Shown here: positions 24,685-56,381 of the stretch, in pieces
How positions within the stretch are numbered: position 1 is the stretch's first letter
Layout of the letters: each line of letters opens with the position of its first letter
NCBI GenBank assembly: GCA_964454165.1
Contig: CAYVQJ010000084.1
Span: 44,077-108,076 of the forward strand
Origin: an uncultured Myxococcales bacterium
Lineage (GTDB): Bacteria; Myxococcota_A; UBA9160; SZUA-336
DNA length: 64,000 nt
Direction: 5' to 3'
Position numbers and translations under genes: made by a program
Notes under the pieces: generated by a model
Databases searched by the model: none
Told to the model about the DNA's origin: nothing
What the model saw: only the letters and a program-made list of their open reading frames with translations

Positions 24685-25905
24685 ATGCAAGTTGCGCCGG
24701 TCACCGGGCTCGGGGACGAGATCAACGAGATCCGTCTCCGCACGGCAGAGATTGTCACCAAGGAGATCATCCCCAACGAGAATTCGCTGCGGTACGGCAG
24801 CGGCGACAAGCGCCGCGACCTGTTCCGCGGCATCCAGGCGAAGGTCAAGCAGGCCGGCCTCTGGGCGCCCCACCTTCCCGAGGAATACGGCGGGATGGGG
24901 ATCGGGTTCCTGAAGCACGCCTACATGAACGAGATCACGGCGTGGAGCCCGTTCTCGGGCGCGCTCTTCGGCTGCCAGGCGCCGAACTCCGGCAACCAGA
25001 CGATCCTGGTGAAGTACGGGACGCCCGAGCAGAAGAAGCAGTTCCTCGAGCCGTTGGTGCGCGGCGAGATCGAGTCGTGCTTCTCGATGACGGAGCCCAA
25101 CCAGCCGGGCTCGGACCCGTACGCGATCCAGACGCGCGCGGTTCGCGACGGCAACGACTGGGTGATCAACGGGCACAAGTGGTTCACGTCCAACGCGCGG
25201 CGCGCCGCGTTCGCGATCGTGATGTGCCGCACCGAGGGCGACGACGACAGCGGCTCGCGCGACCGCATGACGCAGATCATCGTGCCGATGGACACCAAGG
25301 GCGTGAACATCGTGCGCAGCGTGCCGGTGTGGGGGCACGAGCAGGGCGACCACTGCGAGATCCTCTACGAGAACGTGCGCGTGCCCGTGGAGAACGCGCT
25401 CGGGCGGCGCGGCAGCGGGCACCAGGCGGCTCAGGATCGCCTCGGCGCCGGTCGCGTGTTCCACTGCATGAGCTCGGTCGGCCAGATGTGGCGCGCGTTC
25501 GACCTGATGGTGCGCCGCTCGATGGACCGCGAGGTGCACGGCGGCAAGCTCGAGACCAAGCAGTTCGTGCAGGGCTTCATCGCCGACTCGTACATGGACA
25601 TCCAGAGCGCGAGGCTCATGACGCTGCACTGCGCGCACCAGATGGAGGCGGGCGTGGACCCGCGCACGATGATCTCGGCGATCAAGATCTTCGTACCGGC
25701 GGCGCTCGAGCGCGTGGCCGATCGCGCGATCCAGGTCTGGGGCGCGGCGGGCGTCTCTTCGGACCTGCCGCTCGAGGGCATGTACCGCGGCGCGCGCACG
25801 CTGCGCATCGCCGACGGCCCCGACGAGGTGCACCGCATCCTGATCGCCAAGAACGTGCTCAAGCGCTTGCACGCCGGTGAGTCGTGGGACTTCGGGGTGA
25901 TGTGA
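24685..25905 (+). CDS. acyl-CoA dehydrogenase
   Basis: 406 aa; ACAD N/M/C-domain pattern (CFSMTEPNQPGSDP, IFVPAALERVADRAIQVWGAAGV). Confidence 0.9.
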   Translation: MQVAPVTGLGDEINEIRLRTAEIVTKEIIPNENSLRYGSGDKRRDLFRGIQAKVKQAGLWAPHLPEEYGGMGIGFLKHAYMNEITAWSPFSGALFGCQAPNSGNQTILVKYGTPEQKKQFLEPLVRGEIESCFSMTEPNQPGSDPYAIQTRAVRDGNDWVINGHKWFTSNARRAAFAIVMCRTEGDDDSGSRDRMTQIIVPMDTKGVNIVRSVPVWGHEQGDHCEILYENVRVPVENALGRRGSGHQAAQDRLGAGRVFHCMSSVGQMWRAFDLMVRRSMDREVHGGKLETKQFVQGFIADSYMDIQSARLMTLHCAHQMEAGVDPRTMISAIKIFVPAALERVADRAIQVWGAAGVSSDLPLEGMYRGARTLRIADGPDEVHRILIAKNVLKRLHAGESWDFGVM

Positions 25906-26429
25906 TGGCCGTGAAGAAATTCCCGATCGAAGCGGGAGCGATCGCGCTGTTCGCGCGCTCGGTCAACGATCCCAACCCGATCTACTACGACGAGGACCAC
26001 GCGAAGAAGACGGAGGTCGGCGGGCTGATCGCCCCGCCCACGTTCACGCAGTCGTCGGCGCAGTTCGATCCCGACTGGATGCTGCGGCCGCGCATCGACC
26101 AGCCCTGGCTCGGGTCGGGCAGGGAGCCGACCGGCCTGGTGCGGCGCGCGCCGGCCGAGTCGAGCGGCGGCGGCGGCGGACGGCCGAGCGGCGCGGCCGC
26201 CGGCGGCCTGCACGCCGAGCAGCACTTCGAGTACCTCCGGCCGCTGCACCCGGGAGATGTTCTTCGGGCCGAGACCAAGCCGGGCAAAAGCTGGGAGAAG
26301 GAGGGGAAGCGCGGCGGCAAGCTGCACTTCTCCGAGACCGTGACCGAGTTCTTCGACCCCCAGGGCCAGCTCGTGGTGCGGGCGCGCGGCGTCGGCGTGC
26401 GCACCGAGCGCGTGATCGAGCAGAAGTAG
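25905..26429 (+). CDS. MaoC-like (hot-dog fold) hydratase, N-terminal-type subunit
   Basis: ATG overlaps the ACAD stop (TGATG); MaoC_dehydrat_N-like pattern; Gly-rich linker. Confidence 0.75.
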   Translation: MAVKKFPIEAGAIALFARSVNDPNPIYYDEDHAKKTEVGGLIAPPTFTQSSAQFDPDWMLRPRIDQPWLGSGREPTGLVRRAPAESSGGGGGRPSGAAAGGLHAEQHFEYLRPLHPGDVLRAETKPGKSWEKEGKRGGKLHFSETVTEFFDPQGQLVVRARGVGVRTERVIEQK

Positions 26430-26438
26430 GAGGCAGTC

Positions 26439-26861
26439 ATGGCGCTCAAGCGAAAAGAGCTAGAGGTGGGCAGCGCGCGCGAAGAGGTCGTGGTCGACAA
26501 CCTCACGCGCACCCAGCTCGTGATGTACGCGGGGACGTCCGGCGACTACAACCCGGTCCACAGCGACGAGGTGTTCGCGACCAAGGTCGCGGGCTATCCG
26601 ACGGTGTTCGCGCACGGGATGCTCACCATGGGCCTGACCGCGCGCATGCTCACCAACTGGGTCGGGGACGGGCGGCTCACGCGCTACGGCGTGCGCTTCG
26701 TCTCGCAGGTCTGGCCGGGCGACACGCTCACGGCGCGCGCGAAGGTCGAGACGCTGCGCGACGAGAACGGCGTCGCGCTCGCCGACCTCGAGGTGGTGAC
26801 GACGAACCAGAACGGCCAGGAGGTCGTGCGCGGCTACGCCACGGCTCGGCTCGATCCATGA
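26439..26861 (+). CDS. MaoC family dehydratase (hot-dog fold)
   Basis: YAGTSGDYNPVHSDEVFA is the MaoC dehydratase signature. Confidence 0.85.
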   Translation: MALKRKELEVGSAREEVVVDNLTRTQLVMYAGTSGDYNPVHSDEVFATKVAGYPTVFAHGMLTMGLTARMLTNWVGDGRLTRYGVRFVSQVWPGDTLTARAKVETLRDENGVALADLEVVTTNQNGQEVVRGYATARLDP

Positions 26862-27727
26862 GCGTGCGCGAAGGGAAGCTCACCGGCTTCGAGCTCGAGC
26901 TTCACGAGCCGGGCATCGCGCTCATCCGCTTCGCGGAGCCCGAGCGGCTGAACGGCATGACCTACCCGATGAAGCGCGACCTGATCGAGACGTTGACCCA
27001 GGCGCAGATGGACGACGCCGTGCGCGTGGTGGTCTTCACCGGCTCGGGACGCGCGTTCTCGGCGGGCGACGACATCTCGGGCCACCGGCGCGAGGGCGCC
27101 GGCCCGGGCTTGGTGCCGCCGATCCACGAGGGCCACCGCAACGCGATCGGCACCTACGACGCGCTGCGCGCGCTGTCGCAGGCGCTGAACGTCGCGGTGC
27201 GCAACCTCGACAAGCTGTCGATCGCCGCGATCAACGGCGTGGCGATCCAGACCGGCTTCTCGTTGGCACTCTCCTGCGACTTCCGCATCGCCTCGGCCGA
27301 CGCGCGCATGGGCAGCGCCACGCTGCGCTTCGGCCTGCTGCCCGACGAAGGCGGCCAGTACCTGCTGGTGCAGCTCCTCGGCGTCGCGAGCACGCTGGAC
27401 TTCCTGATGCGCAAGCGCATCGTCTCAGCGAGCGAGGCGCTCGAGCTCGGCCTGGTCCACGAGGTGACGCCGCCGGACAAGCTCCTGGAGCGCGCGCTCG
27501 ACTTCGCGCGCGAGCTCGCCGAAGGACCGCAGGTCGCCATGCGCCTGCTCAAGCGCTCGATCTACAACGCCGCCGAGCTGTCGTTCGCGCAGGCCTGCGA
27601 CGAGATCGCTGCGAAGACTGCTGTCAGTGACCACCATCCCGACGCGCGCGAGGGCGTCGCCGCGTTCCAGCAGAAGCGCAGCCCGCGCTTCAACGAGTGG
27701 CTGGACAAGGAGAAACGGTCGACCTAG
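26858..27727 (+). CDS. enoyl-CoA hydratase/isomerase family protein
   Basis: ATGA overlap with the upstream gene; crotonase motifs GSGRAFSAGDD, AINGVAIQTGFSLALSCD. Confidence 0.85.
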   Translation: MSVREGKLTGFELELHEPGIALIRFAEPERLNGMTYPMKRDLIETLTQAQMDDAVRVVVFTGSGRAFSAGDDISGHRREGAGPGLVPPIHEGHRNAIGTYDALRALSQALNVAVRNLDKLSIAAINGVAIQTGFSLALSCDFRIASADARMGSATLRFGLLPDEGGQYLLVQLLGVASTLDFLMRKRIVSASEALELGLVHEVTPPDKLLERALDFARELAEGPQVAMRLLKRSIYNAAELSFAQACDEIAAKTAVSDHHPDAREGVAAFQQKRSPRFNEWLDKEKRST

Positions 27728-27787
27728 CCGCGTCACGTGCTGCTCGGTCCGACCACTCTCGTAACGAGAGTTGAAGCCGGAGCGGCA

Positions 27788-30700
27788 GTGAGTCGAGTCC
27801 TGATCGCGCTCCTCGTGATCGCAATGAGCGCGCCGGCCGGCGCGGCGCTGGTTCCCTACGAGGCAGTCGACGGCAGCGCCGGGACTGCGCGCGGCAACAA
27901 CCTGGTGGACGTGACCGCCACCAACGCGTGTGGGTTCACCATCGTCGCCGGGAACATCAACCTGACGGGCTGCCGCGACCGCAACGGGGTGCTGTGCCCC
28001 ACGAACGCTGCGTGCGACCTGGACCGCGTGCCCGCCGGGCGCTGCACGCTCGGCAACAATGCCGCGTGCCTGTGGCCGAACGGCGCCGGGTTCTGCACCG
28101 CCGATGGCAACGTCGGCTGCCTGGTGAACCTCGACTGTACGAACAAGGGACTCGCGGGCACCTGCGACACCAGCCAATGCCCGGGCGGAGACTGCAGCGG
28201 GTGCGCCTGCCAGGGCACCGACGACACTCTTGCAACGTTCGAGACGAACGCCGGGCGCTGCGGCGGAACCATCGGTGTCTGTTCCGACGGAGACAGCGAG
28301 TTCGCATACGCACCCTCGATCTCCGGCGGGCTCTGCTTCAACCTCGTCGCGCCTACGGACCGGCCGTTCAACTGCGGTCTCGAGGCGGGCCAGGCGCTGA
28401 CGGGAGCGCGCTCGTCCTTCGAGAATCCCCCGATCTCGCCGTCGCTACAGCGCGAGTCGCCCGCGGGTCCGATCGTCGAGCTGCGCACGACGCAGGTGTA
28501 CGACATCGGGGCCCTGGAACCCGGGCGCGGCAGCATCCGCCGCTTCTCGCTGCTGGCGGATTCCTACTGGGAGGATCCGACCTGGTCGGACAAGACCCTG
28601 ACGGGCGCTGCGGCGAACGCGCACATCTGGACCCTGTGGTGCGACACGCCGACGGGCTGGTCGACGGACGACAACCTGCCGAATGGGCAGAGCTGCTGGA
28701 ACTCGACGGCCAACTCGATCGGATACATCTGGACCCAGGACGTTCCGGCCAACGACTTCCTTCCAGCCGGGTCGCTCACGACGAACCTCGATGTCGACAT
28801 GAACGGTGTCGCGGATTGCCCGCCGCACTGCGGTTTGAACTACGACCTGCACACGTTGGAGCAGCTCGCGCTCGAGGCCGTGCTTCGCCTCGACGTACGT
28901 GCGGGAGCTCAGCTCGCGCTGGAGTCGTTCGTCGATGGCCCGGCGGGCGCGGGAGATCTGGTCGCGGTCGCGAGCGTCGTCAGCCACGTGTGGCTGCCCG
29001 CGATCGATCAGCGCTGCTGGATGGGCGGCGATCCCGAGGCCATCTGCTCGACCTGCGTGGGCGGCCTTTGCAGCGGCTACCTGGCGCTCAGCTGCACCGT
29101 GGGCCGCGACTGTGCGCTCTACACCGGACGCTGTAGCGACAGCGAGCAACCCTGCAACCCGGCCGGCGCCGGCACGGCGTGCCCGGGCGCACAGCTCTGC
29201 CGCTCCTGCGTAGGCGTATTCGCGAGCGGGCTGTGCGTCGGCATCGGCGGCGCCTGCCGTCTCGACTCCGACTGCGCCAACAACAACTGCGGCGACCAGA
29301 ACGGAAACAACATCTATCCGGAGCCGACCGCCCACAACCCGCTCGCGATCCCGGTCGGCTACAACACCTACGGCTTCGCCGAGCTCGAGCTCGAGACCAG
29401 GTGCAACCCGACCCGCCCCGGGCGCCTCGGCCTGGTCACCCACTTCGGACGAGCACTGGCGGCGCCGCTCGCGCTGCTGGTGACGACCGGCGCTGCCGCA
29501 ACCGAGGTGCGCGATCCCGACCTGGGGGGCGCTCCAGCTCCGAATGACACCGGCGCTCTAGGCCTTGTGAGTGGCGCAGCGGTCGGAATCGCAGCTTGGG
29601 GTGGCTATCCCCTGGAAAACGGCAGCTACGCGGTCGGAACGGTGTTTCCCGTCGATCCGACCGGTCCGCCGTGCTGCGCTGCCACGGGAAACGTGACCGG
29701 CGTGCTCGACAAGGCGACGGAGAGCGTGCGACCCGTGATCACGGAGAATGCCGGCGCGATCACCTGGCCCGAGGGGAGCGCTGGGTCGGTACAGACAGCG
29801 CCGTTGCGCACCTCGGGCTGGGGAGGCGGAGCGAACCGAACCCCCGGCTGCCCCGGGGACAGCTCGCTCGTCGGCGCGCCCGCGCCGGATCCCGGACCGT
29901 GCAACGATCCTCTCGGGGGATCGTCGTTCTGTACCGGCGGCGACTGCGAAGGCAACACCGGCGCGGACGACGTGCGCACCACGGCGACGATCGGCGGTGT
30001 GGCGAATGTCCCTGCGCTCAACGCCCGGGCGAAGGTCCCCGACCGGTTCGCGACGGGAACCTCGGCCCCGACGCTCTACGGTGTGGCCACATTCACGGGC
30101 CTGGACGTGGACGTGCTCTCGCCGAGCGACACGGATTTCTCGGCCGCTGTCGAACTCCTGCACTGCCCGATGATCGGCGCGTGCAGCGAGGCGCCGACGC
30201 AGGACTGCATCCGCGACGCGGATTGCGGTGCGGGAAACACCTGCCTGAACCGCGTCAAGCGCTGCGTGACGCTGGAGCCCGACTGCGAGGACCCCGACAT
30301 GGATGGGGTCTACGTGTGCGCCGGGGGTGACAACTGCCCCGATAGGTTCAATCCCGACCAAGCGAACTTCGAAGGAGACGCGCTCGGCGACGCGTGCGAT
30401 GCCTGTGAGACGGTCGTGAACGCCGGCGTGGACACCGACATGGACGGGGTGGACAACGCGTGCGACACCTGCACCAACCAGGGGAACCCGCAGCTCGCCG
30501 GGACGCCGGTGCTGAACCGCACCTTCGTCAGCCACCAGCGCGACGACGACGCGGACGGCCGCGGCAACCGCTGCGACTTCGACTACAACAACACGGGCGT
30601 TGCGATCACCGCCGGGGACTTCAACGACATGAAGTTCTCGCTGCTTCCGAGCTCGGGTTTCACTGCGCTGAACACTTGCGGCGCCACGACGGCCGAGGGT

Positions 30701-30946
30701 GGATCGGGCGCCACGCAGCCGTGCGGCGAGTTCGATCACGACGGCATGGGTTCGACGGTCAGCGCCGGAGATTTCAACCTGTCGAAGGCGGCCGTTGCGG
30801 CAGGCGGTGTGATCAACACCAACTTCCCGAAGTGCACGGCCTGCACAGTCGGCACTGGCTGGTCGAATGTGATCGGCCCGGGAGCTCGCCTCGGGCGGCC
30901 GGTCTGCCAGACCGCCGTCCCCGGGCGCTGCGTCTTCGCGCCTTGA
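27788..30946 (+). CDS. large secreted Cys-rich protein with thrombospondin type-3-like calcium-binding repeats and a conserved ~200-aa C-terminal domain
   Basis: GTG 27788 with GGAG RBS; signal peptide VSRVLIALLVIAMSAPAGAA; many D-x-D-x-D-G-x-x-D-x-C repeats (DPDMDGV, DTDMDGVDNACDTC, DDDADGRGNRCDFD). The C-terminal domain is shared with the 57808-59724 paralog. Confidence 0.75.
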   Translation: MSRVLIALLVIAMSAPAGAALVPYEAVDGSAGTARGNNLVDVTATNACGFTIVAGNINLTGCRDRNGVLCPTNAACDLDRVPAGRCTLGNNAACLWPNGAGFCTADGNVGCLVNLDCTNKGLAGTCDTSQCPGGDCSGCACQGTDDTLATFETNAGRCGGTIGVCSDGDSEFAYAPSISGGLCFNLVAPTDRPFNCGLEAGQALTGARSSFENPPISPSLQRESPAGPIVELRTTQVYDIGALEPGRGSIRRFSLLADSYWEDPTWSDKTLTGAAANAHIWTLWCDTPTGWSTDDNLPNGQSCWNSTANSIGYIWTQDVPANDFLPAGSLTTNLDVDMNGVADCPPHCGLNYDLHTLEQLALEAVLRLDVRAGAQLALESFVDGPAGAGDLVAVASVVSHVWLPAIDQRCWMGGDPEAICSTCVGGLCSGYLALSCTVGRDCALYTGRCSDSEQPCNPAGAGTACPGAQLCRSCVGVFASGLCVGIGGACRLDSDCANNNCGDQNGNNIYPEPTAHNPLAIPVGYNTYGFAELELETRCNPTRPGRLGLVTHFGRALAAPLALLVTTGAAATEVRDPDLGGAPAPNDTGALGLVSGAAVGIAAWGGYPLENGSYAVGTVFPVDPTGPPCCAATGNVTGVLDKATESVRPVITENAGAITWPEGSAGSVQTAPLRTSGWGGGANRTPGCPGDSSLVGAPAPDPGPCNDPLGGSSFCTGGDCEGNTGADDVRTTATIGGVANVPALNARAKVPDRFATGTSAPTLYGVATFTGLDVDVLSPSDTDFSAAVELLHCPMIGACSEAPTQDCIRDADCGAGNTCLNRVKRCVTLEPDCEDPDMDGVYVCAGGDNCPDRFNPDQANFEGDALGDACDACETVVNAGVDTDMDGVDNACDTCTNQGNPQLAGTPVLNRTFVSHQRDDDADGRGNRCDFDYNNTGVAITAGDFNDMKFSLLPSSGFTALNTCGATTAEGGSGATQPCGEFDHDGMGSTVSAGDFNLSKAAVAAGGVINTNFPKCTACTVGTGWSNVIGPGARLGRPVCQTAVPGRCVFAP

Positions 30947-31046: not shown

Positions 31047-31745
31047 ATGATCTGTCTGTCGTTCGACAACCTCGGCGGCATCGCGGAGGGTGACTTCGAT
31101 CCGGCGCATCCGGCGCTGGCGGTCGGGCTGCCGCGCATCCTGGCACTGCTCGAGCGTCTCGGTGTGCGCGCGACCTTCTTCGTCGAAGGCCACGCGGGGG
31201 AGATCTTTCCCGACGCCGTGCGGGCGATCGCGCGTGCCGGGCACGAGGTCGCGCTGCACGCGTGGCAGCACGAGCAGTGGGGAGCACTCGCGCCCGCGGA
31301 GGAGGAGCGTCTACTTGCGCTTGGCGTAGACGCGCTGACGAAGCTGCTCGGCGCGCCGCCGCGCGGGTTCCGCCCGCCCGGAGGCAAGCTCACCGACGCG
31401 AGCGCCGAACTCTTCGCCGCACACGGGATCGCGTGGGTCTCGACCGCGGAAGGGCACACTCGCGGGCTGGCGGGCGCGGCGTTTACCTGGCGTCGCGTAG
31501 ACGCCACGAACACGATCCCGCGCCTCGGTGGGCGTGAGACCCCGGAGCAGTGCTTCGCGCGCTGGCTCGACGAGGCGCGCGCGCACGAATCCCGCTCGCC
31601 CGAGGCTCCGTGGGTCACCGTGGCGCACCCGTTCTGCGCGGGTCTCGACCCGGCGTGGCCGGCGTTCGAGCGCTTCGCCGAGGCGCTCGCCCATGCGGTC
31701 GGACCTGCTGCATTCCACACGTTGGGCGACGCCTCGGCGGTGTAG
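31047..31745 (+). CDS. polysaccharide deacetylase (NodB-homology) family protein
   Basis: RATFFVEGH...HEVALHAWQHE matches the NodB motifs. Confidence 0.8.
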   Translation: MICLSFDNLGGIAEGDFDPAHPALAVGLPRILALLERLGVRATFFVEGHAGEIFPDAVRAIARAGHEVALHAWQHEQWGALAPAEEERLLALGVDALTKLLGAPPRGFRPPGGKLTDASAELFAAHGIAWVSTAEGHTRGLAGAAFTWRRVDATNTIPRLGGRETPEQCFARWLDEARAHESRSPEAPWVTVAHPFCAGLDPAWPAFERFAEALAHAVGPAAFHTLGDASAV

Positions 31746-31766
31746 GATCGCCCGAGGGAGGAGCCG

Positions 31767-33314
31767 ATGAACCCGATCGTTGTTACGCAGCAGGGCAAGC
31801 TTGAAGGCCTCGAGCGCGGCGGCATGCAGGTGTTCCTGGGCATTCCGTACGCCGCCCCGCCGGTAGGAGCGCGCCGCTGGCTGCCGCCCGCCCCGCCCGA
31901 GCGCTGGTCCGGCGTGCGGCGCGCGCAGACCGCCTCGCCCGCGGCGCCGCAGAACCCGATCCCCATCGACATCCTGCCGATCCTGAAGCTCGACGGCCCG
32001 CAGAGCGAAGATTGCCTGTACCTCAACGTCTGGACGCCCGCGCTCGACGGCGCGCAGCGCCCCGTGCTGTTCTGGATCCACGGCGGTGGCTTCACGATCG
32101 GCTCCGGCACGCAGCTCCTCGAGGACTACGACGGTTCCCTCGCGAGGCGAGGCGACTGCGTGATGGTGTCGATCAACTACCGTCTGGGCCCGCTCGGCTT
32201 CCTGAATCTGCGCGAGCTCACGAACGGCGCGATCCCGGCGTGCGGCAACGAGGGGCTGCTCGATCAGATCGCCGCGCTCGCGTGGGTGCGCGACAACATC
32301 GCGTCGTTCGGCGGCGATCCCGACAACGTGACGATCTTCGGCGAGTCGGCCGGCGGCATGAGCGTGGGGTCGCTGTGCGGCATGCCCGCTGCGGCGGGCC
32401 TGTTCCACAAGGCGATCCCGCAGAGCGGCGCGACCAACACCGCGAGCTCGCTCGGGCGCGCGGTGAAGGTGGCCGAGCGCTGCGCGGGGATCCTCGGCAC
32501 GCGCGACGCCGCCGTGCTGCGCGCGCTAGACGTGCCGACGCTGCTCGCGCTCCAGCCCAAGCTCGTGCCGGGACCGGGCCAGCAGGACCCGGAGATCGGC
32601 GCGATGCCGTTCCAGCCGTGCGTGGACGGCGACGAGCTGCCGACCAGCGCGATCGAGGCAGTGCGGCGCGGGCTGGCGCGCGGCGTCGCGCTGCTCGTCG
32701 GCGCGACGAGCGAAGAGTGGAAGCTGTTCGGCGCGATCGACCCCACGCTCCAGACGCTGGACGAGGCGCGCCTCGGACCGCTCTGCGCGTCGCGCGCGCC
32801 TGGCGGTGAGAGCATCGTGTCGGCGTACCGCACCGCCCGTGCGGCACGCGGACAGAGCACGACGCCGCGCGAGCTGTTCATGGCATTCGAGACCGACCGC
32901 GTGTTCCGCGTCCCGGCACAGCGCATGCTCGAAGCGCAGGCCGCGCACGAGCGCCGGCTGTACTCGTATCTCGTCACGTGGCCCTCGCCCGCGTTCGGCG
33001 GGATGCTCGGCGCCTGTCACGCCGTCGAGCTCGGGCCGCTGTTCGGGATCCACGACAAGACGCCGGTGCTCGCCGACTTCTTCGGACGCGGCCCGGCGGC
33101 CGACGCGCTCTCGCGGGCGATGCAGGAGGCGTGGACTGCCTTCGCGAAGAGCGGCGATCCGAGTGGACCGTCGCTCGGCCGCTGGCCCGCCTGGGACGCA
33201 GCGCGCCGCGCCACCATGCTGCTCGGCGAAAAGTGCTCGGTGGAGCACGATCCGCTCGGCGCCGAGCGCCAGGCGTGGGACGGTGCACCCGACGCCGTCA
33301 TCGGCACTCTCTAG
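31767..33314 (+). CDS. carboxylesterase type B (para-nitrobenzyl-esterase-like)
   Basis: FWIHGGGF oxyanion-hole region and nucleophile elbow GESAGG. Confidence 0.9.
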   Translation: MNPIVVTQQGKLEGLERGGMQVFLGIPYAAPPVGARRWLPPAPPERWSGVRRAQTASPAAPQNPIPIDILPILKLDGPQSEDCLYLNVWTPALDGAQRPVLFWIHGGGFTIGSGTQLLEDYDGSLARRGDCVMVSINYRLGPLGFLNLRELTNGAIPACGNEGLLDQIAALAWVRDNIASFGGDPDNVTIFGESAGGMSVGSLCGMPAAAGLFHKAIPQSGATNTASSLGRAVKVAERCAGILGTRDAAVLRALDVPTLLALQPKLVPGPGQQDPEIGAMPFQPCVDGDELPTSAIEAVRRGLARGVALLVGATSEEWKLFGAIDPTLQTLDEARLGPLCASRAPGGESIVSAYRTARAARGQSTTPRELFMAFETDRVFRVPAQRMLEAQAAHERRLYSYLVTWPSPAFGGMLGACHAVELGPLFGIHDKTPVLADFFGRGPAADALSRAMQEAWTAFAKSGDPSGPSLGRWPAWDAARRATMLLGEKCSVEHDPLGAERQAWDGAPDAVIGTL

Positions 33315-33344
33315 CCCACAACGCATCCAGCGGAGGAAATCCCG

Positions 33345-34232
33345 ATGCCCAGCTCACAACACGAAATGGTCGTTCAGATGCTCGTCGCGCGGCCGCGGCC
33401 GCAGAACCCGACGCTCGCCGAGATGCGCGCCGGCTTCGAGGCGCTCGTCCAGATGTTCCCGGTGCCGGCGGACGTCGTGCGCGAGCCCGTCCAGGTCGGG
33501 CGCATCGCGGCGGAGTGGGTGAGTGTCCCCGGCAGCCGCAGCGATCGCGCCGTGCTGTACCTGCACGGCGGCGGCTACGTGATCGGCTCGCTGAACACGC
33601 ACCGAGAGCTGGCGTCGCGCATTGCGCGGGCGACGCAGACGCGCGTGCTCATGATCGACTACCGGCTCGCGCCGGAGCACCCGTTCCCGGCCGCGGTCGA
33701 CGATGCGACCGCCGCCTATCGCTGGCTGCTCGCGAGCGGGCTCCCGGCCGGTCGTATCGCAGTGATGGGCGACTCGGCCGGAGGCGGGCTCACGCTCGCC
33801 ACGCTGCTCGCGCTGCGCGGTGGGCGCGATCCGCTCCCCGCGGCGGGAGTCTGCCTGTCGCCGTGGACCGACCTCGAGGGAACCGGCGCCTCGGCCCAGC
33901 CGGGCGGCGCCGACGATCCCCTGCTCGAGCTCGCGGGCCTGCGCGAGATGGGCCGCCACTACGCGGCGCACGACCCGCGCAATCCGCTTGCGGCACCCTT
34001 GCACGCGGACTTTCGAGGACTTCCGCCACTACTGCTCCAGGTCGGCACGCGCGAGCTCCTGCTCGACGACTCCACGCGCGTGGCCCAGAAGGCGAAGGCC
34101 GCCGGCGTGGACGTGACGCTCGAGAAGTGGGACGGCCTGATCCACGTCTGGCAGCTCTTCGGCCCCACGGTCCCCGAAGCCGAGCAAGCCGTCGCCCGCA
34201 TCGGCGAGTTCGTCCGCAAGCACGTGGGATAG
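33345..34232 (+). CDS. alpha/beta hydrolase, hormone-sensitive-lipase-like esterase family
   Basis: HGGGY oxyanion motif and GDSAGG nucleophile elbow. Confidence 0.9.
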   Translation: MPSSQHEMVVQMLVARPRPQNPTLAEMRAGFEALVQMFPVPADVVREPVQVGRIAAEWVSVPGSRSDRAVLYLHGGGYVIGSLNTHRELASRIARATQTRVLMIDYRLAPEHPFPAAVDDATAAYRWLLASGLPAGRIAVMGDSAGGGLTLATLLALRGGRDPLPAAGVCLSPWTDLEGTGASAQPGGADDPLLELAGLREMGRHYAAHDPRNPLAAPLHADFRGLPPLLLQVGTRELLLDDSTRVAQKAKAAGVDVTLEKWDGLIHVWQLFGPTVPEAEQAVARIGEFVRKHVG

Positions 34233-35154: not shown

Positions 35155-36669
35155 ATGTGCAAGCGGATGCTGGCGGCGACTCTCGGACTCGCGCTCGCGG
35201 CCCCCGTGGCGGCGGCGACCGGCGGCGATCTCGCCGCCGAGCTCCGCGCGATTCTCGAGCAGGAGCGGGAGCGGAGCGGGGTTCCCGCGCTCTCTCTTGC
35301 GCTGGTCCAGGACGGGGCGCTGGCGGCGGAGGTCGCGTCGGGATACGCGGACGTAGAAGCGCGACGCGAAGCGACCCCGGACACGGTGTTCGGCGGGGCG
35401 TCGGTGTCCAAGCTGATGACGGCCACGCTCGTGATGCGCGCGGTCGAGCGCGGCGCGCTCGAGCTCGATGCGCCGGCGAATCGCCACCTGCCGTCCGAGC
35501 GCTGGATCCGCGACGCGGCAGGCGCGCCGGTCGACGCGACGCTGCGCCAGATGCTGACGCACACCTCGGGTATTCCCGTGAGCTGGGCGGGTATCCAGTT
35601 CGAAGCCGACGATGGCACGCCCGACCTCGTCGAGTTCCTCGCGCAGGGTCTCCGCACGATCCGCGCCCCGGGCGAGAAGATCATCTACGCCAACGACGCG
35701 TACGGCCTGCTCGGCTATTTGGCCGCGCAGGCGGCTGGGCGCGACTTCGCCGAGCTCGCGCGCGACGAGCTGTTCGCGCCGCTCAGCATGAGCAGCTCGA
35801 GCTTCCGCCGCGCTCCGGAGCTCGCGGCCAGGAGCGCGCGCGGCTACGGTGGCTACTTCGGCGGCGACGAGCCGCTCGGCGCGCCGTTCGAGAGCGTCGT
35901 CAATCCCGCCGGGTCGCTGGTCACGACCCCGCGCGATCTCACGCGGTTCGCGCGCATGGTGCTCGGGCGCGGCGAGCTCGACGGCGTCCGCATCCTGAGT
36001 GCCGACACGCTCGCGGAGATGCTCCGGCTGCAGGCGAGATCGCATCCGGCGCACGACGAGGGCTACGGCCTCGGCTTCATGGTTCGCGAGCGGGGTGCCC
36101 GCAAGCAGGTCTGGCACGATGGCGATCTCCCGGGGGTCGCCGCGCGCGTACTACTCCTGCCCGCGCAAGGCGCCGCCGTGGCGGTGCTCGCCAACAAGAA
36201 CGACCACGATCCGGTGAACCGCGCCGCGCGTCGCGCGCTCGCGCTGGTCGCCGGCGCCGAGAAGATCTCCGCTCCGACGCCCGACGTGAGCGCGCTCTCG
36301 GCGTGGAGCGGCACGTATCGCGCCGCGGACATGGTGCCGCCGCGGCTCGGCTTCCTCGAGCTGCTGTTCAACGTGGAGGTGACGGCGCGGGACGGGCACC
36401 TGGTCGGCTACATGCCCATCATCGGCCAGGAGCTCGAGCTGCAACCCCTCGGCGGCGACCGCTTCCGCATCCTCGGCGGCGTCCTCGACGACTCCACGCT
36501 GGTCTTCGCCCGCGACGCGCTCTACGCGAGCTTCGTCGAGATGCGCCGCATCGGCCCCTGGCAGAGCGCCCGCGCGCTCCTCGCCTATGCCGCGCTGCTC
36601 GGTGTCGCCGCCTTGGTCAGCATCGGCTGGCTGGGCGTTCGCCTCGTCCGGCGGCTACGCGCTGGCTGA
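35155..36669 (+). CDS. secreted serine hydrolase (beta-lactamase-related) with C-terminal TM anchor
   Basis: Signal peptide MCKRMLAATLGLALAAPVAA; S-x-x-K motif (ASVSK); C-terminal hydrophobic segment LLAYAALLGVAALVSIGWLGV. Confidence 0.85.
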   Translation: MCKRMLAATLGLALAAPVAAATGGDLAAELRAILEQERERSGVPALSLALVQDGALAAEVASGYADVEARREATPDTVFGGASVSKLMTATLVMRAVERGALELDAPANRHLPSERWIRDAAGAPVDATLRQMLTHTSGIPVSWAGIQFEADDGTPDLVEFLAQGLRTIRAPGEKIIYANDAYGLLGYLAAQAAGRDFAELARDELFAPLSMSSSSFRRAPELAARSARGYGGYFGGDEPLGAPFESVVNPAGSLVTTPRDLTRFARMVLGRGELDGVRILSADTLAEMLRLQARSHPAHDEGYGLGFMVRERGARKQVWHDGDLPGVAARVLLLPAQGAAVAVLANKNDHDPVNRAARRALALVAGAEKISAPTPDVSALSAWSGTYRAADMVPPRLGFLELLFNVEVTARDGHLVGYMPIIGQELELQPLGGDRFRILGGVLDDSTLVFARDALYASFVEMRRIGPWQSARALLAYAALLGVAALVSIGWLGVRLVRRLRAG

Positions 36670-37848
36670 CGCCTTCGGCTCCGGCTTCGTCGGGGTCTGG
36701 TTGCTCGGCAGGTTGTAGTGGGAGACGTCGATCTCCTCGAGCTCGATCTCGCGCGCGAGCACGCGCTCCTTCCAGGCGAGAAGCTCGGGGTGGCGCGCCT
36801 GGAACTCGGGCATCACCTCGCGGCCGAACAGCTCGAGCGAGGAGCAGATGTCCTCGTGCGTGTTGTTGCCGGCCTGGTTCAAGAGGATCACCTGATCGAC
36901 GTGCGACTCCTCGAAGCGATGCAGGCGCTCGCGCAGCGTGGCCGGTGAGCCGATCAGCGCGGTCCCGCGCCGGCGCTGGCCTTCCGGCGACTGCTTCCAC
37001 TGGAGGTACTCGTTCCACAGGTTCACGGTGCCGGGCTTCACCGGGCCGTGGCGGTTGTAGAAGAGCAGCGCGAACTGGAAGAAGGTCCAGCCTTCGGCCT
37101 TGCGCTCGGCTTCCTGGTCGGTCTCGGCGCACATGAAGCCGGACACGACCGCGATCTGCGGATTGGTCTGGTAGTCGCAGAGCTTCTCGAGGCGGCGGGT
37201 GTAGGCGTTGTAGTAGCAGTGCACCCAGGCCTTCGCGGCGTCGGCGCTCATGAACTGGAAGCCGAGCACGCCGAGGCCGCGGCGTCCCGCCATCTCGATC
37301 GTGTCGAGCTGCGAGCACGCGACCCAGAGCGGCGGGTGCGGGCGCTGCAGCGGCTTGGGCAGCACGTTGCGCAGCGGGAAGTCGAAGTACTCGCCGTGGT
37401 ACTCCCAGCCTTCGCTCCAGAACATGGGCAGCGTCGCGCGCACGGCGTCTTCCCAGACCGCGCGCTTGTCGCGGAATTTGCGGCCGAACGGATGCAGCTC
37501 GGTCACGCTCGAGCCTTCGCCGATGCCGAGCTCGACGCGCCCGTGCGAGACCAGGTCGAGCGTCGCGACGCGCTCGGCCACGCGCGCCGGATGGTTCGTG
37601 GTGAGCTGGACGATCCCGTGCCCGAGGCGGATGCGCTTCGTACGCTGGCTCGCCGCCGCCAGGAACACCTCGGGAGCCGACGAGTGCGAGTACTCCTCCA
37701 GGAAGTGGTGCTCCACCTCCCACGCGTAGTCGTAGCCAAGCCCGTCGGCCAGCTCGATCTGGTCCAGCGAGTGCTGCAGCAGCCGGTACTCGCTGCCCTC
37801 GTCCCAGGGGCGTGGAATCTGGTGCTCGTAGAAGATCCCGAACTTCAT
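36655..37848 (-). CDS. LLM-class flavin-dependent oxidoreductase
   Basis: MKFGIFYEH..., luciferase-like TIM-barrel pattern; 3' end overlaps the convergent hydrolase by 15 nt. Confidence 0.85.
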   Translation of the reverse strand: MKFGIFYEHQIPRPWDEGSEYRLLQHSLDQIELADGLGYDYAWEVEHHFLEEYSHSSAPEVFLAAASQRTKRIRLGHGIVQLTTNHPARVAERVATLDLVSHGRVELGIGEGSSVTELHPFGRKFRDKRAVWEDAVRATLPMFWSEGWEYHGEYFDFPLRNVLPKPLQRPHPPLWVACSQLDTIEMAGRRGLGVLGFQFMSADAAKAWVHCYYNAYTRRLEKLCDYQTNPQIAVVSGFMCAETDQEAERKAEGWTFFQFALLFYNRHGPVKPGTVNLWNEYLQWKQSPEGQRRRGTALIGSPATLRERLHRFEESHVDQVILLNQAGNNTHEDICSSLELFGREVMPEFQARHPELLAWKERVLAREIELEEIDVSHYNLPSNQTPTKPEPKASASA

Positions 37849-37987
37849 GCTGCCTCCGGCGTCCGGCGCCGCGGCCATTCTAGGCAGCGCGCCCGCGATC
37901 TCGGGAAAGTTCCCGCCTGTGGGGAGTTCCCGGCACTACGGGAAGGGCGTAAGATCCGCGCGCCTGAAACACGTTCTAGGGTGCTGG

Positions 37988-40273
37988 ATGCTGCGTTGGC
38001 TGTGGATCTCGTGTGTGCTGATGGTGCCCCTGCCGGTGGCTGCGGCGCGCTTGATCCTGAACGAGCTGAACGCGGTCAGCGCCAGCAACTACCTGTACGG
38101 AGGCACCGCAGCCGCTGATGAATCGGGTGGTCAGGCGGCCGATCCGTTCTTCGGGCGCAGCCTCGGAAATGGTGGCGACTGGCTCGAGCTGGTCGCGATC
38201 GGCGATGGGCTGGACGTCCGGGGCTGGACGCTCGACTTCTACGAGCTGGGCGTATTCCGGACCCGCCTGACACTCTCCTCGAGCCCCCTCTGGGGGAACC
38301 TCGCGGCGGGCACGCTGATCACGATCGCAGAGGACGTGCCCGAGGACGCGGGCTACGACCCCGCGGCCGGCGACTGGTGGATCCAGGCACGGGCCGGGAC
38401 GGCGGGCGGCGGCGCGCTCGTGAGCGCCCTCGACTTTCCGGCCTCGCACGACGACTGGCAGCTCGTGATCCGCGACGCGGCCGGGAATGGGGTCTTCGGC
38501 CCCGTGGGCGAGGCCATCGCCGGCGCCGGCGTGAACTCGCGCGAGACCTTCCGGCTCGAGGCGGATCCGAGCGCGATCGTCGCCCCGAGCTCGGCGAGCT
38601 ACAACGACGCGGTCTCGAGCTCGTTCGGCGCGCCGAACCTCTACGCCGCGGGAGCGGTCACGCAGGACTTCTCCGCGCTGCGCCTGGGACTCCCGCTGCC
38701 CGACCAGGACGGCGACGGCGTCGCCGACGACGGCGACTTCTCCGGGATCGCCGGCGACGCGCCCTGCGCGACGAATGCCGGGACAGGCTGCGACGACAAC
38801 TGCCCCGTCTTCGGGAACCCCGGCCAGGGAGATACCGGAGTGGTCGGCGGCGCGGGGTCGGACGGCCGCGGCGACGCCTGCCAGTGCGGCGACGTGAACG
38901 ACGACGGCGCGGTCACCGCCAACGACGCGTCCGATCTGCGCGCCTGGCTGGCGTCGGCGCTGGCGCCGCTCCCGGGTGTGTCGAAGTGCGGCGTCGTGAA
39001 CGACGGCCGTTGCAGCGTGGCGGACGCGAGCGTGCTCCAGCGCACGACGCTCGCCGGCCTCGGTCCCGCGATCGCGCCCGTGTGTCTCGCAGCGACGCCT
39101 CCGGCGTCCTCGGCGGACATCTACTTCGACCCGACGCGCGTGCTCGACATCGAGGTCACCATGTCGCCCGCGGACTTCGACACGCTGCGCACGCAGACCC
39201 GGTACATCTACGCGTATCTCTACTCGCCGACCTGCGGCGACGGGCCGTTTCCGAGCCCCTACACCTGGTTCCCCGCGACGGTGCGCGTGGACGGCGTCAC
39301 GGTCCCGCAGACCGGCATCCGCAAGAAGGGCTTCGTCGGGTCGCTCTCCGTGACGAAGCCCGCGCTCAAGCTCGACTTCGGCCAGTACGTCGGCGGCCGC
39401 ACGCTGAACGGCCTCGGCTCGATGACGCTCAACAACGCGCGCCAGGACCCCACGTACCTGAAGCAGTGCCTCGGCGCGATGATGCTCTCCGACGCCGGCT
39501 TGCCGGTCGGGCGCTGCAGCTTCGCGAACGTACGCGTGAACGGCGAGAACCTGGGCCTCTACGTGCACGTCGAGGAGTACAAGACGCCGTTCCTCACGCG
39601 CGCCTTCGGGAGCGCGGCCGGCAAGCTCTACGAGGGCACGCTCTCCGACTTCTGGCCCGGCGAGTGGCGCAACACCTTCGAGATCGAAGGTGCAGCAGCG
39701 GCCGACACGACCGAGCTCGACGCGCTGGTCGACGCGCTCCAGCTCCCCGACGGACAGGTGCTGCCGGCAGTCGAGGCGCTGGTGGACGTGCCCGCGTTCA
39801 TCGACTTCTGGGCCGCGAGCGCCTTGATCGGGGACTGGGACGGCTACACCAACAACCAGAACAACTTCTGGATCTACCTGCGCCCGGGCCAGGGGCGCTT
39901 TCATTTCCTGCCGTGGGGTATCGACGACGTGCTGGGTCGCGGCAATCCCGCCTTCTACGAGGACGCGGTGAACGCGCCCGCCGTCGTGCCGCGCTCGACG
40001 CTCGCGCGCCGGCTGTACGGTCAGCTCGACACCCAGATCGCGTTCATCGCGCGTCTCGTTTACCTGGCGCAGTCGGTGTGGAATCCGGTGCGCTATCTGG
40101 CGGAGATCGATCGCATCCAGGCGCTGATCACGCCGTACACGGGCGACCTCACGGCTTCACTCGTGCCGGTCCGCCAGTGGATCGCGCTACGACAGGGGCG
40201 GGTCGAGGCGGAGCTCGCCAACGGTCCCCCCGTCTGGTCCGAGGACCAGCGCGATCATCCCTGCGTGTACTGA
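37988..40273 (+). CDS. CotH kinase-family protein with N-terminal lamin-tail domain and dockerin/thrombospondin-like Ca-binding repeats
   Basis: Signal peptide MLRWLWISCVLMVPLPVAAA; LTD pattern (LILNELNAV...GDWLELV); DQDGDGVADDGD and CGDVNDDGAVTANDASDL repeats; CotH core (FWIYLRPGQGRFHFLPWGIDDVLG). Confidence 0.8.
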   Translation: MLRWLWISCVLMVPLPVAAARLILNELNAVSASNYLYGGTAAADESGGQAADPFFGRSLGNGGDWLELVAIGDGLDVRGWTLDFYELGVFRTRLTLSSSPLWGNLAAGTLITIAEDVPEDAGYDPAAGDWWIQARAGTAGGGALVSALDFPASHDDWQLVIRDAAGNGVFGPVGEAIAGAGVNSRETFRLEADPSAIVAPSSASYNDAVSSSFGAPNLYAAGAVTQDFSALRLGLPLPDQDGDGVADDGDFSGIAGDAPCATNAGTGCDDNCPVFGNPGQGDTGVVGGAGSDGRGDACQCGDVNDDGAVTANDASDLRAWLASALAPLPGVSKCGVVNDGRCSVADASVLQRTTLAGLGPAIAPVCLAATPPASSADIYFDPTRVLDIEVTMSPADFDTLRTQTRYIYAYLYSPTCGDGPFPSPYTWFPATVRVDGVTVPQTGIRKKGFVGSLSVTKPALKLDFGQYVGGRTLNGLGSMTLNNARQDPTYLKQCLGAMMLSDAGLPVGRCSFANVRVNGENLGLYVHVEEYKTPFLTRAFGSAAGKLYEGTLSDFWPGEWRNTFEIEGAAAADTTELDALVDALQLPDGQVLPAVEALVDVPAFIDFWAASALIGDWDGYTNNQNNFWIYLRPGQGRFHFLPWGIDDVLGRGNPAFYEDAVNAPAVVPRSTLARRLYGQLDTQIAFIARLVYLAQSVWNPVRYLAEIDRIQALITPYTGDLTASLVPVRQWIALRQGRVEAELANGPPVWSEDQRDHPCVY

Positions 40274-43589: not shown

Positions 43590-44423
43590 ATGGGTCGTCT
43601 GGAAGGCAAGGTGGCGCTCGTCACCGGCGGCGCGAGCGGGATCGGCGAGCGAACCACGCGCCTGTTCGTGGAGGAGGGCGCTCGCGTCCTGGTGGCCGAC
43701 CTGCAGGAAGAGCGCGGGCGCGCGGTGGCCGCGAGCCTCGGCAAGCACGCGGCGTTTTGCCGCACCGAGGTGAGCCGCGAGGACCAGGTGCGGGCGGCCG
43801 TGGCAGCGTCCGTCGCCGCGTTCGGGCGCCTGGACGTGCTCGTGAACAACGCGGGATTCGGCGGTGCGCTCGGGCCGCTCGAGAGCACGCCCGTCGAGGA
43901 GTGGGACGTGACCTTCGCCGTGCTGGTGCGCGGGCCGTTCCTCGGCATGAAGCACGCCGCGCCGGCGCTGCGCGCGGCGGGCGGCGGGGCCGTGGTCAAC
44001 ATCGCGAGCGTGGCGGGGCAGGTCGGTGGCTTCGGCCCGCACGCCTACAGCGCCGCGAAGGCCGCGCTGATCCAGCTCACGCGCACGGCGGCGCTCGAGC
44101 TCGCCGAGCAGAGCACGCGCGTGAACGCGATCTGCCCGGGCTTCATCGCCACTCCCCTCGCGACCAACACCGTCGGCCGGCCTGACGCGGGCATCGCGAA
44201 GGCCAAGCCCGCGATGTCACGCGCCCAGCCGATCGCGCGCGCGGGTGAGCCCGACGACATCGCGCAGGCCGTGCTCTGGCTCGCGAGCGACGCTGCGGGG
44301 TTCGTGACGGGTCAGACGCTCGTCGTCGACGGCGGGCTCACGGCTGGCCGGCGCTGGAGCGAGCAGCCGGAGTTCGTGCGGCAGCATCGTCCTCTGCGCG
44401 TGTATCGGCCGGAGGGCTACTAG
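43590..44423 (+). CDS. short-chain dehydrogenase/reductase (SDR)
   Basis: TGGASGIG Rossmann motif, NNAG, YSAAK catalytic Y-x-x-x-K. Confidence 0.85.
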   Translation: MGRLEGKVALVTGGASGIGERTTRLFVEEGARVLVADLQEERGRAVAASLGKHAAFCRTEVSREDQVRAAVAASVAAFGRLDVLVNNAGFGGALGPLESTPVEEWDVTFAVLVRGPFLGMKHAAPALRAAGGGAVVNIASVAGQVGGFGPHAYSAAKAALIQLTRTAALELAEQSTRVNAICPGFIATPLATNTVGRPDAGIAKAKPAMSRAQPIARAGEPDDIAQAVLWLASDAAGFVTGQTLVVDGGLTAGRRWSEQPEFVRQHRPLRVYRPEGY

Positions 44424-47400: not shown

Positions 47401-47436
47401 GGAGCGCGGGGCCGGGGTGTGGTCAGCGGGCTGCAT
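44338..47436 (-). CDS. MMPL/RND-superfamily transporter (two 6-TM bundles with large periplasmic loops)
   Basis: 1032 aa; duplicated MMPL-type membrane domains; 3' end overlaps the convergent dehydrogenase gene by 86 nt. Confidence 0.85.
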   Translation of the reverse strand: MQPADHTPAPRSTLVLARFVVRNRNAIGALMGLVTLFFAYPIANGVFTAVGKALPGPAVRLNTNARDLFPEHPFIHAQDKFAGRFGNSTLIAIAMVVKDGTIFTPENLQKIDRITKSLDGWDYEAHGDERRALRAELRDAGMLTPKQIDDALDDKYPSYPINHYYIRSLTHESTRVVDIEPSGAMIGGFLIEEMPQTQEEADLVRTAVHEKIPFVLGNLVSTDEKAALVTAGFVTDRLDHRAIFQAVFDHVMKIQARESDGNTEVYVTGIPILTGWILQHAKEIVIFVGLAVVAIFALLWLYFRRGHGVAIPLICAGTTVVWGLGFTGWAGLTFDPLILVIPMIITARAVSHTVQMAERFFEDYEAIHDQFDNEHDAKLHAATTAMAELMIPGTLGVLTDVAGLLMILVTTIPQMRSLGIFGAFWVGAIVFTVELMHPILICWFPPPRDWHHFVPRFMIRFTRAVGNLTTDPFGKWAVAGVTVATFAVSAWITLFYSQIGEAAPGTTLFWPDHPFNQAAAEITKKFGGADALIVYADGDRDGSASDLEPLALMERLERELTTRAGARGAISLVPIMRTVGSQLRYGDPKFETLPEDTGRVRGTIFQVRNASPPGALNLFLTPDGRAASTTVFFPDHKGETIRRAVQIASRFVEENPLGLVAIRLDPNHAAPDTGALHPEALKDFLYYVLGPVLPRRAHTLRVRLRQEDGSYVDSAVKQVQADGAPPWLEDFGAKATQQYVQAKDEVRPGEVFTWPKELEAFDASAVDQWWEEPELGIRAVAVETNRLLVQDLKGREPDPVFQPTQSWARGVQFTMAGGLMGILAAVNDEVERAHLANISLIFLVIFVMHSLTYRSAISGGIILLQIMTATLLSLAYMAVAGLGLNVNTLPVQSVGVGIGVDYAIFIVDRIRQEVVSTRGDIDEAIRRAIRTTGMAVTFTVTTVVGGIVFWSFSTLRFQAEMAWLLTILMVINMLGAITVVPAFYSILRPKVASSLLAAQAEEDAASSPPADTRAEDDAAARTPAARSSAGQP

Positions 47437-48424: not shown

Positions 48425-48548
48425 GCTCCTGCATCTCCCTGTAACCCTCCAGGGAAAGCGCGAGCTCCAGAAGCGCGCGAATCGGGCGGGGTCCCGCGCA
48501 AACGGAAACCCCAACCTTCATGGGTACAGTAACCGAAACCGGGGTCTG

Positions 48549-56353: not shown

Positions 56354-56381
56354 CGCGACGCGCGCTGGTAGGCTGTCGTCG

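Follow-up and report, generated by a model that had tools for sequence, protein, structure and literature searches.

What do two large secreted proteins, otherwise unlike each other, have in common at their C-termini? The question is raised by a 64,000-nucleotide stretch of DNA from an uncultured Myxococcales bacterium (GenBank assembly GCA_964454165.1, contig CAYVQJ010000084.1, positions 44,077–108,076 of the forward strand), referred to here as the window, with coordinates counted from its first letter. The two proteins, A and B, each end in thrombospondin type 3 (TSP3) repeats followed by a 134-residue module. On its predicted structure and on profile comparisons, this module is best regarded as a divergent form of a known module type: a dockerin-like family, rich in disulfides, fused to TSP3 repeats and so far unclassified. 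The two genes and the start of A are as follows.

27788–30946, + strand: gene A, secreted protein of 1052 aa (open reading frame (ORF) 27737–30946, translation)
27788–27844, + strand: predicted Sec signal peptide of A, MSRVLIALLVIAMSAPAGA (read from the sequence; cleavage site inferred)
57787–59724, + strand: gene B, secreted protein of ∼640 aa (ORF 57574–59724, translation)

Gene A probably starts at GTG 27788, with GGAG at 27779–27782, 6 nt upstream. Its product comprises the signal peptide (10-residue hydropathy maximum 3.4), a Cys-rich passenger of ∼830 aa with no assigned fold, TSP3 repeats and the C-terminal module, and is 69% identical from end to end to the metagenome protein P0018. 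For gene B the probable start is TTG 57787 or GTG 57808; here a passenger of ∼300 aa is followed by a TSP3 run longer than that of A, and then by the module. Neither passenger has a match in Pfam or, by sequence, in the PDB. Both proteins open with a hydrophobic, signal-peptide-like segment, and we conclude that both are exported via the Sec pathway; export of the type I secretion/RTX type was rejected on the grounds of the N-terminal signal peptides and the many cysteines. Public gene calls for B are of 499 aa (P0015, NCBI) and 638 aa (P0160, Logan; GTG 57808). The NCBI call takes an internal Met (MCLADAADG...) as its first residue, which leaves it without a signal peptide; a start at TTG 57787 would give a better one, with a basic n-region.

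BLASTP aligns residues 854–1069 of A (numbered from the ORF start at 27737) with residues 510–716 of B at 58% identity over 217 columns (E 2e-65), and finds no further significant similarity in the remainder of the two proteins. Exactly two copies of the back-translated CGEFDHD motif lie in the window (30722 and 59503), where shuffled sequence gives an expectation of 0. As DNA the shared stretches are 69% identical, indicating an old shared paralogous domain with no recent duplication. A first-pass annotation had recognised the common ending from motifs that are indeed present in both proteins, and had treated it as a conserved, Cys-containing domain of ∼200 aa. The tail is conserved and does contain cysteines, but plain TSP3 repeat accounts for roughly one third to one half of the supposed domain: the shared stretch is composite, with ∼70–95 residues of TSP3 repeats first and the 134-residue module after them.

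30296–30514, + strand: TSP3 calcium-binding repeats of A, residues 854–926 (phmmer against the PDB)
58789–59319, + strand: TSP3 repeat region of B (sub-cutoff Pfam TSP_3 and NCBIfam matches; BLASTP to the TSP3 part of A)

With phmmer, the TSP3 part matches thrombospondin-2 (2rhp, 1yo8) and COMP (3fby) at E values of 2e-10 to 7e-8. Its TSP3 character, which the first-pass annotation had proposed, is borne out by the PDB matches. Pfam TSP_3 (PF02412) matches as well, with scores of 15.9 bits for A and 20.9 bits for B (E 2.8e-4) that lie under the cutoff of 25. Elsewhere in the family, matches to Pfam TSP_3 reach E 8e-32. The NCBIfam model MtsC, also TSP3, matches residues 409–487 of B at E 1.2e-22, far under its cutoff. 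By these similarities the stretch upstream of the module consists of thrombospondin type 3 repeats, and the units and tail of the module do not.

The module itself has the following parts in the two proteins, whose modules are 61% identical.

30515–30943, + strand: C-terminal module of A, NRTFVSHQRDDDADGRGNRCDFDY ... CVFAP (family hidden Markov model (HMM) A4, E 1.8e-29)
30572–30646, + strand: loop-helix unit 1 of A, CDFDYNNTGVAITAGDFNDMKFSLL (unit 1 against unit 2 profiles)
30722–30805, + strand: loop-helix unit 2 of A, CGEFDHDGMGSTVSAGDFNLSKAAVAAG (motif at 30722; profile comparison)
30833–30943, + strand: cysteine-rich tail of A, CTACTVGTGWSNVIGPGARLGRPVCQTAVPGRCVFAP (four conserved Cys)
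59320–59721, + strand: C-terminal module of B, 134 aa, the sequence used for modelling
59377–59457, + strand: loop-helix unit 1 of B, CDFDYDNAGAVIIAADFNQIKASVGKL (model helix at module residues 33–40)
59503–59583, + strand: loop-helix unit 2 of B, CGEFDHDQAGAAVSAGDFNQAKGAVGK (model helix at module residues 76–85)
59608–59721, + strand: cysteine-rich tail of B, CAACSVGTGWSNVLGSGGERIGRPVCESAVAGACQYAP (short strands in the model, predicted local distance difference test (pLDDT) 87–93)

A TSP3-like lead-in (QxDDDxDGxGNxCD) comes first, then two homologous loop-helix units joined by a short loop that is bounded by two conserved cysteines, and finally the cysteine-rich tail. Profiles of the two units, taken from a 66-sequence family alignment (A4), were compared with hhalign; unit 1 (CDFDY...DFN..K..VGK) and unit 2 (CGEFDHD...DFN..K..VGK) align over 26 columns with a probability of 97.6% and an E value of 3.2e-12, so that the internal duplication first noticed by reading the sequence holds. 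Equivalent positions are F22 and F65, D23 and D66, D25 and D68, G28 and G71, [VI]31 and [IV]74, D35 and D78, [KR]40 and [KR]83, and G44 and G87. Tandem duplication of a ∼22-residue segment is a mark by which dockerins are recognised, and the same comparison finds it in the module.

The conserved loop pattern of the family is D-x-D-x-x-G-x-x-[IV]-x-x-x-D. Residues D21, D35, D66 and D78 are invariant, D68 and G28 are each retained in 58 of the 66 sequences and G71 in 57/66; these conserved acidic and glycine positions fit metal-binding loops. Seven cysteines are found between the GNxC cysteine and the end in 106 of 128 modules, a framework that fits an oxidised extracytoplasmic domain. The family consensus reads [WF]xTxTGGQ[RL]DDDxDGxGNxCD[AF][DK][FY]..G..V...D[FL]..[FM][KR].S.GK.....CG.....C..[FY]D[HL]D..G..I...D[FL]..[FA][KR]...GK..GP[KR]C..C.... 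Many members match profile positions 1–85 only, which span both repeat units, and end in a short CxxCPLxCxxGxxGxC tail, whereas A and B carry a long tail, KCxACxxGxGWSN...GRPVCxSAVxGxCxYAP. Since most members are short-tailed, the long tail is a subfamily feature.

An AlphaFold2 model of the B module, built with the 66 diverse homologues, has a mean pLDDT of 94.4 and a predicted template modelling score of 0.87; an earlier model from 16 close homologues (pLDDT 46) was discarded. The fold of the A module is read from this model of its paralogue. A helix follows directly after each conserved loop, and the rest is made up of loops and short strands. There is no β-sandwich, and the sandwich-type sorting fold that had been suggested for this region does not agree with the model. 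Its best and only consistent structural neighbours in the PDB are dockerins. The confident loop-helix model and these neighbours together suggest a divergent form of a known module rather than a wholly new one. About half of the module falls outside the dockerin-like core, namely the TSP3-like lead-in, the Cys-bounded linker and the cysteine-rich tail.

The final ∼116–134 residues (from about NRTxxSxQxDDDADGRGNxCDFDY) have no match in Pfam-A (2025) or NCBIfam 20.0, even at E ≤ 10, in agreement with the earlier view that the last ∼120 aa lie outside known families; nor did full-text literature searches find a paper describing the module. By these profile searches the tail of A and B is a family without a curated Pfam or NCBIfam model. 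When 5.8 billion proteins were searched by word index, 14 matched, 13 from the Joint Genome Institute (JGI) and one from NCBI, and those named by their source are all called 'hypothetical protein'. When a profile of the last 116 positions was run exhaustively with hmmsearch against 1.84 billion 50%-identity representatives, 168 proteins were found at E ≤ 1e-3, of which 76 reach E ≤ 1e-10 and 21 reach E ≤ 1e-30. Metagenome contigs, when scanned, yielded 68 module loci, with G+C contents of 0.49–0.74, mostly 0.62–0.73. One match, in a Polyangiaceae metagenome-assembled genome (L001), was the sole GTDB-representative match to one narrow peptide pattern; it is spurious, because the matching frame is a non-coding one within another gene.

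The passengers that carry the module are very diverse. Among 75 full-length members, 40 Pfam families precede the TSP3 repeats, including Peptidase_S8, PPC, Pro_isomerase (cyclophilin), FG-GAP, PKD, Beta_helix, Peptidase_M4, LVIVD, COesterase (carboxylesterase), GSDH (glucose/sorbosone dehydrogenase), Kelch and FGE-sulfatase. A signal-peptide-like N-terminus is seen in 59 of 73 Met-starting members, and in nearly all family proteins the profile match ends within ∼10 residues of the C-terminus. One tail on many passengers is the pattern of docking or targeting modules. In a few proteins, however, the module is internal or in tandem, with two to four copies or 300–430 trailing residues (L008, 7010–10078; L047, 2–2770; L062, 3148–5790; L070, 2–637; and P0064). 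Of the two roles that the first-pass annotation had offered, anchoring is consistent with the terminal position and with the more than 40 unrelated passenger families, but a strictly terminal secretion or sorting signal is disfavoured by the internal and tandem copies. In P0064 and P0040, separate segments of more classical dockerin-like type (GDxxGDG) were spotted by eye.

In cellulosomes the dockerin is the plug that clips an enzyme onto the scaffold via cohesins. We propose that the present module is a calcium-stabilised, dockerin-like docking tag, with a presumed partner and presumed calcium binding, and give this proposal about an even chance of being correct. It is suggested by the occurrence of a C-terminal module on many Sec passengers, by the dockerin neighbours, by the invariant acidic residues and by the cysteine framework. 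In such an arrangement each C-terminus would consist of a TSP3 calcium-binding run capped by the 134-residue module. The core of the module would be two EF-hand-like loop-plus-helix units linked by the short Cys-bounded loop, with the TSP3-like DxDxDGxGNxCD segment leading into it and the cysteine-rich tail locking it. Three disulfides would form inside the module, and the GNxC cysteine would pair upstream, into the TSP3 repeats. By analogy with dockerins, which tether enzymes to cohesins, the tag would tether its fused passenger, whether a protease, an esterase, adhesin-like repeats or the passenger found in A or in B, to a receptor at the cell surface or in the matrix.

A candidate for such a receptor is offered by a small gene that, outside the window, usually lies just downstream of orthologues of protein A. 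At 17 metagenome loci the protein-A homologue gene is followed, ∼100–150 nt downstream and on the same strand, by a gene for a protein of 170–205 aa with a signal peptide, a Gly-, Thr-, Asn- and Val-rich core of ∼135 aa and a C-terminal PEP-CTERM anchor.

L002, 13491–14090: small PEP-CTERM neighbour gene
L005, L014, L018, L025, L029, L032, L034, L035: the same neighbour
L045, L048, L050, L051, L054, L056, L058, L061: the same neighbour

When 16 of the small proteins are aligned, Pfam PEP-CTERM is found in all 16 and the cores are mutually homologous (22–54% identity). In ∼0.5 Mb of loci, PEP-CTERM ORFs occur only at this position, in the 17 loci and once each in L052 and L060; in these two the ORF upstream matches just the TSP3-like lead-in of the module profile. 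In L002, L032, L050 and partly L004, the next gene encodes a second module bearer of ∼350–390 aa with an unrelated passenger. It is conceivable from this arrangement, though we think it improbable, that the module is the plug of a hitherto unrecognised cohesin-dockerin-like surface-display system in Gram-negative soil and sediment bacteria, with the exosortase-anchored small protein as its socket. Counting against that idea, the upstream protein of every testable pair belongs to the protein-A family, so that the pairs are not independent associations with the module. The small gene is also absent beside the A-family members in L020, L026, L039, L040 and L042, and beside both A and B in the window. 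In the small protein Pfam finds PEP-CTERM only, with no match to the core, and a profile search of the PDB returned noise. Full-text searches found no paper linking PEP-CTERM or exosortase with dockerins in bacteria.

Several observations weigh against the docking-tag proposal and against a close kinship with dockerins. By definition, dockerins have two EF-hand-like Ca2+ motifs with helices, each with a 12-residue loop bearing Asp or Asn at positions 1, 3, 5 and 12 (PMC12484212). In the module the spacing from first to last acidic residue is 13 positions and not 12 as in EF-hand and dockerin loops, the ligand at loop position 5 is neither acidic nor conserved, and much of the family has a degenerate unit 1, in which Lys or Gln stands where unit 2 has an invariant Asp. 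Pfam Dockerin_1 (PF00404) has no match to A or B, even at E ≤ 10, and none of the 66 family members reaches its gathering score. Two weak sequence echoes speak for the kinship: four of the 66 members match Dockerin_1 below threshold (best E 7.2e-4), and an hhalign comparison of the family with the CelS and CelD dockerins (the CelS query verified as identical to 2MTE/1DAQ, that of CelD taken from a printed search alignment) brings helix 1, loop 2 and helix 2 into the correct register, at an E value of 0.075 that is not significant. On the side of the receptor, no cohesin or other partner was identified. The HMM of the small-protein core has no match in the window, and hhalign comparison of the small protein with three verified cohesins (E 0.68) gives no sequence support for a cohesin. 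Because the Pfam model failed and the loops are non-canonical, we name the core of the module 'dockerin-like' and do not place it in Pfam Dockerin_1.

Of the alternative explanations, the one that survives best holds that the module binds an exopolysaccharide matrix, or merely stabilises its protein, without a dedicated protein receptor. The TSP3 repeats and acidic loops would then form calcium bridges to acidic exopolysaccharide, or rigidify the C-terminus. Such a role is possible, if on balance rather unlikely. The module is always joined to TSP3 repeats, elements that bind calcium and interact with the matrix; its internal and tandem copies recall structural or carbohydrate-binding repeats; and no receptor was found. 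There is also some genomic context in its favour. A polysaccharide deacetylase gene (31047–31742) comes directly after gene A, and the module protein P0019 (831 aa), on a 7111-bp contig from JGI sample 3300056388, is encoded between a Wzz/GNVR tyrosine-kinase-type chain-length determinant and a glycosyltransferase, that is, in an exopolysaccharide locus. That locus is a single case, however, and the structural neighbours of the module are protein-docking modules, not carbohydrate-binding ones.

A role as a C-terminal sorting or secretion domain, handled by a dedicated machine in the manner of the type IX secretion system (T9SS) and removed or modified after transport, appears distinctly unlikely, even though the module is nearly always found no more than 10 residues from the C-terminus, the passengers are very diverse and module genes are often adjacent (L017, L024, L027, L032, L046, L050, L002), a distribution typical of sorting domains. 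The first-pass annotation had already judged a transmembrane helix and any MYXO-CTERM, PEP-CTERM or T9SS-like character to be absent, and on these points it was right. Within the final 110 residues of 128 modules, 19-residue Kyte-Doolittle means reach 1.61 at most (mean 0.90), there is no basic tail, the PEP-CTERM and MYXO-CTERM models give no match, and there is no match to T9SS Por_Secre_tail (TIGR04183/Pfam) or to any other sorting domain in NCBIfam or Pfam. The predicted fold differs from the T9SS β-sandwich, 343–426 residues follow the module in L047 and L062, and no processing enzyme is conserved among 363 predicted neighbour genes.

That the dockerin likeness is convergent, the module being a capping elaboration of the TSP3 array without a separate function, is very improbable, since many bacterial TSP3 proteins lack such a cap, the further upstream TSP3 repeats of B have no interspersed loop-helix units, and these units are homologous to each other and not to TSP3 repeats and fold with helices that TSP3 repeats do not possess.

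The wider gene neighbourhoods yielded no partner for the putative docking tag. Recurrent neighbours among the 363 predicted genes (70 loci) were rejected as partners, being either lineage synteny (a LexA/PTPS/GTP cyclohydrolase/sigma-70 block, a SurA-like protein, MreBCD-PBP2-RodA, HisRS and 2-oxoglutarate dehydrogenase E1) or common signalling proteins (PAS histidine kinases and AAA-TPR regulators). In one lineage (L002, L016, L032, L040, L050) module genes occupy a fixed chromosomal position, flanked on one side by the LexA/PTPS/GTP-cyclohydrolase/sigma-70 block and on the other by the SurA-like gene followed by mreB-mreC-mreD-PBP2-rodA. At six loci a regulator of ∼1030 aa (winged-helix, AAA ATPase and TPR, from its translation) is encoded beside FG-GAP-type module genes (731–1440 residues). 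In L017 (2858–5959), L023, L024 and L053 the regulator gene lies directly upstream, and in L022 and L046 it is the downstream neighbour. The association is probably lineage synteny.

In the window, the genes around A and B (24685–27724, 31047–34229, 36655–40270 and 55136–56987) belong mostly to lipid and xenobiotic metabolism and include an acyl-CoA dehydrogenase, two MaoC-type dehydratases, an enoyl-CoA hydratase, a carboxylesterase, an alpha/beta hydrolase, a luciferase-like monooxygenase, a cytochrome P450 and a histidine phosphatase; an 808-aa protein with a CotH-kinase domain is also encoded there. No synteny is seen between the window and the locus of the A orthologue in L002. Two further genes were noted on the reverse strand.

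44338–47436, − strand: RND/MMPL-like membrane transporter of 1032 aa (from reading its translation)
47555–48514, − strand, beside the transporter: PEP-CTERM protein of 319 aa, with a core unrelated to the small-protein family

The composition of gene B is atypical. At third codon positions its G+C content is 0.68, compared with 0.86 for A and about 0.8–0.95 for most other predicted genes of the window, and its overall G+C content is 0.61. After B, an ORF of 129 aa (59871–60257) encodes transposase-type helix-turn-helix domains (HTH_32, HTH_29, HTH_23). B may be a horizontal acquisition from a relative of lower G+C content.

If the docking-tag proposal is true, a dockerin-type tag has been rebuilt in uncultured high-GC bacteria as a disulfide-stapled, TSP3-fused form, and would serve to place secreted enzymes and adhesin-like proteins of dozens of kinds. 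In the cellulosomes of Gram-positive bacteria dockerins are well understood; a parallel docking system in bacteria with PEP-CTERM would widen the known ways in which an extracellular proteome and matrix can be organised. The HMM from alignment A4 would serve to annotate the family, which numbers at least 168 clusters at 50% identity, and the model points to D21, D35, D66, D68, D78 and the seven cysteines as residues for mutation.

With the sorting domains PEP-CTERM (PF07589), MYXO-CTERM and T9SS Por_Secre_tail the module has terminal position and passenger diversity in common, but it has neither a transmembrane helix nor a basic tail, and its predicted fold is different. PEP-CTERM is present in these organisms, though on proteins other than the module bearers. 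The GC-type dockerin (NCBIfam NF041540, dockerin_GC) is a curated, dockerin-named bacterial anchoring domain. Its profile matches one of the 66 family members, weakly (E 0.074), and has no match to A, B or the rest (65/66); judged by profile, the two are different families.

With TSP3 repeats, as in thrombospondin-2 (1YO8/2RHP), COMP (3FBY), bacterial OmpA-like proteins and MtsC, the likeness is the DxDxDGxxDxxDxC motif, which is present in the ∼70–95 residues before the module; the module's own first 20 residues carry a motif of the same type. In animal thrombospondins the TSP3 repeats are followed by a lectin-like β-sandwich, whereas here the new module stands in its place. There is a precedent for the combination: dockerins and bacterial TSP3 repeats have been reported together in giant extracellular proteins of Omnitrophota (bioRxiv 10.1101/2023.11.21.568195).

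The closest comparison is with the cellulosome dockerins, CelS (1DAQ/2MTE) and Xyn10B (2CCL_B) of C. thermocellum and Cel5A (2VN5_B) of C. cellulolyticum. The module is about twice as large, with 134 aa compared with ∼60–70 aa, owing to its obligatory TSP3-like lead-in and cysteine-rich tail; it has six to seven conserved cysteines where classical dockerins have none; and its hosts are high-GC bacteria that encode PEP-CTERM, not Gram-positive cellulolytic anaerobes. What it has in common with these dockerins is that it is a small C-terminal domain found on many secreted enzymes, and that it is built from a tandem loop-plus-helix duplication with conserved Asp and Gly residues in its loops.

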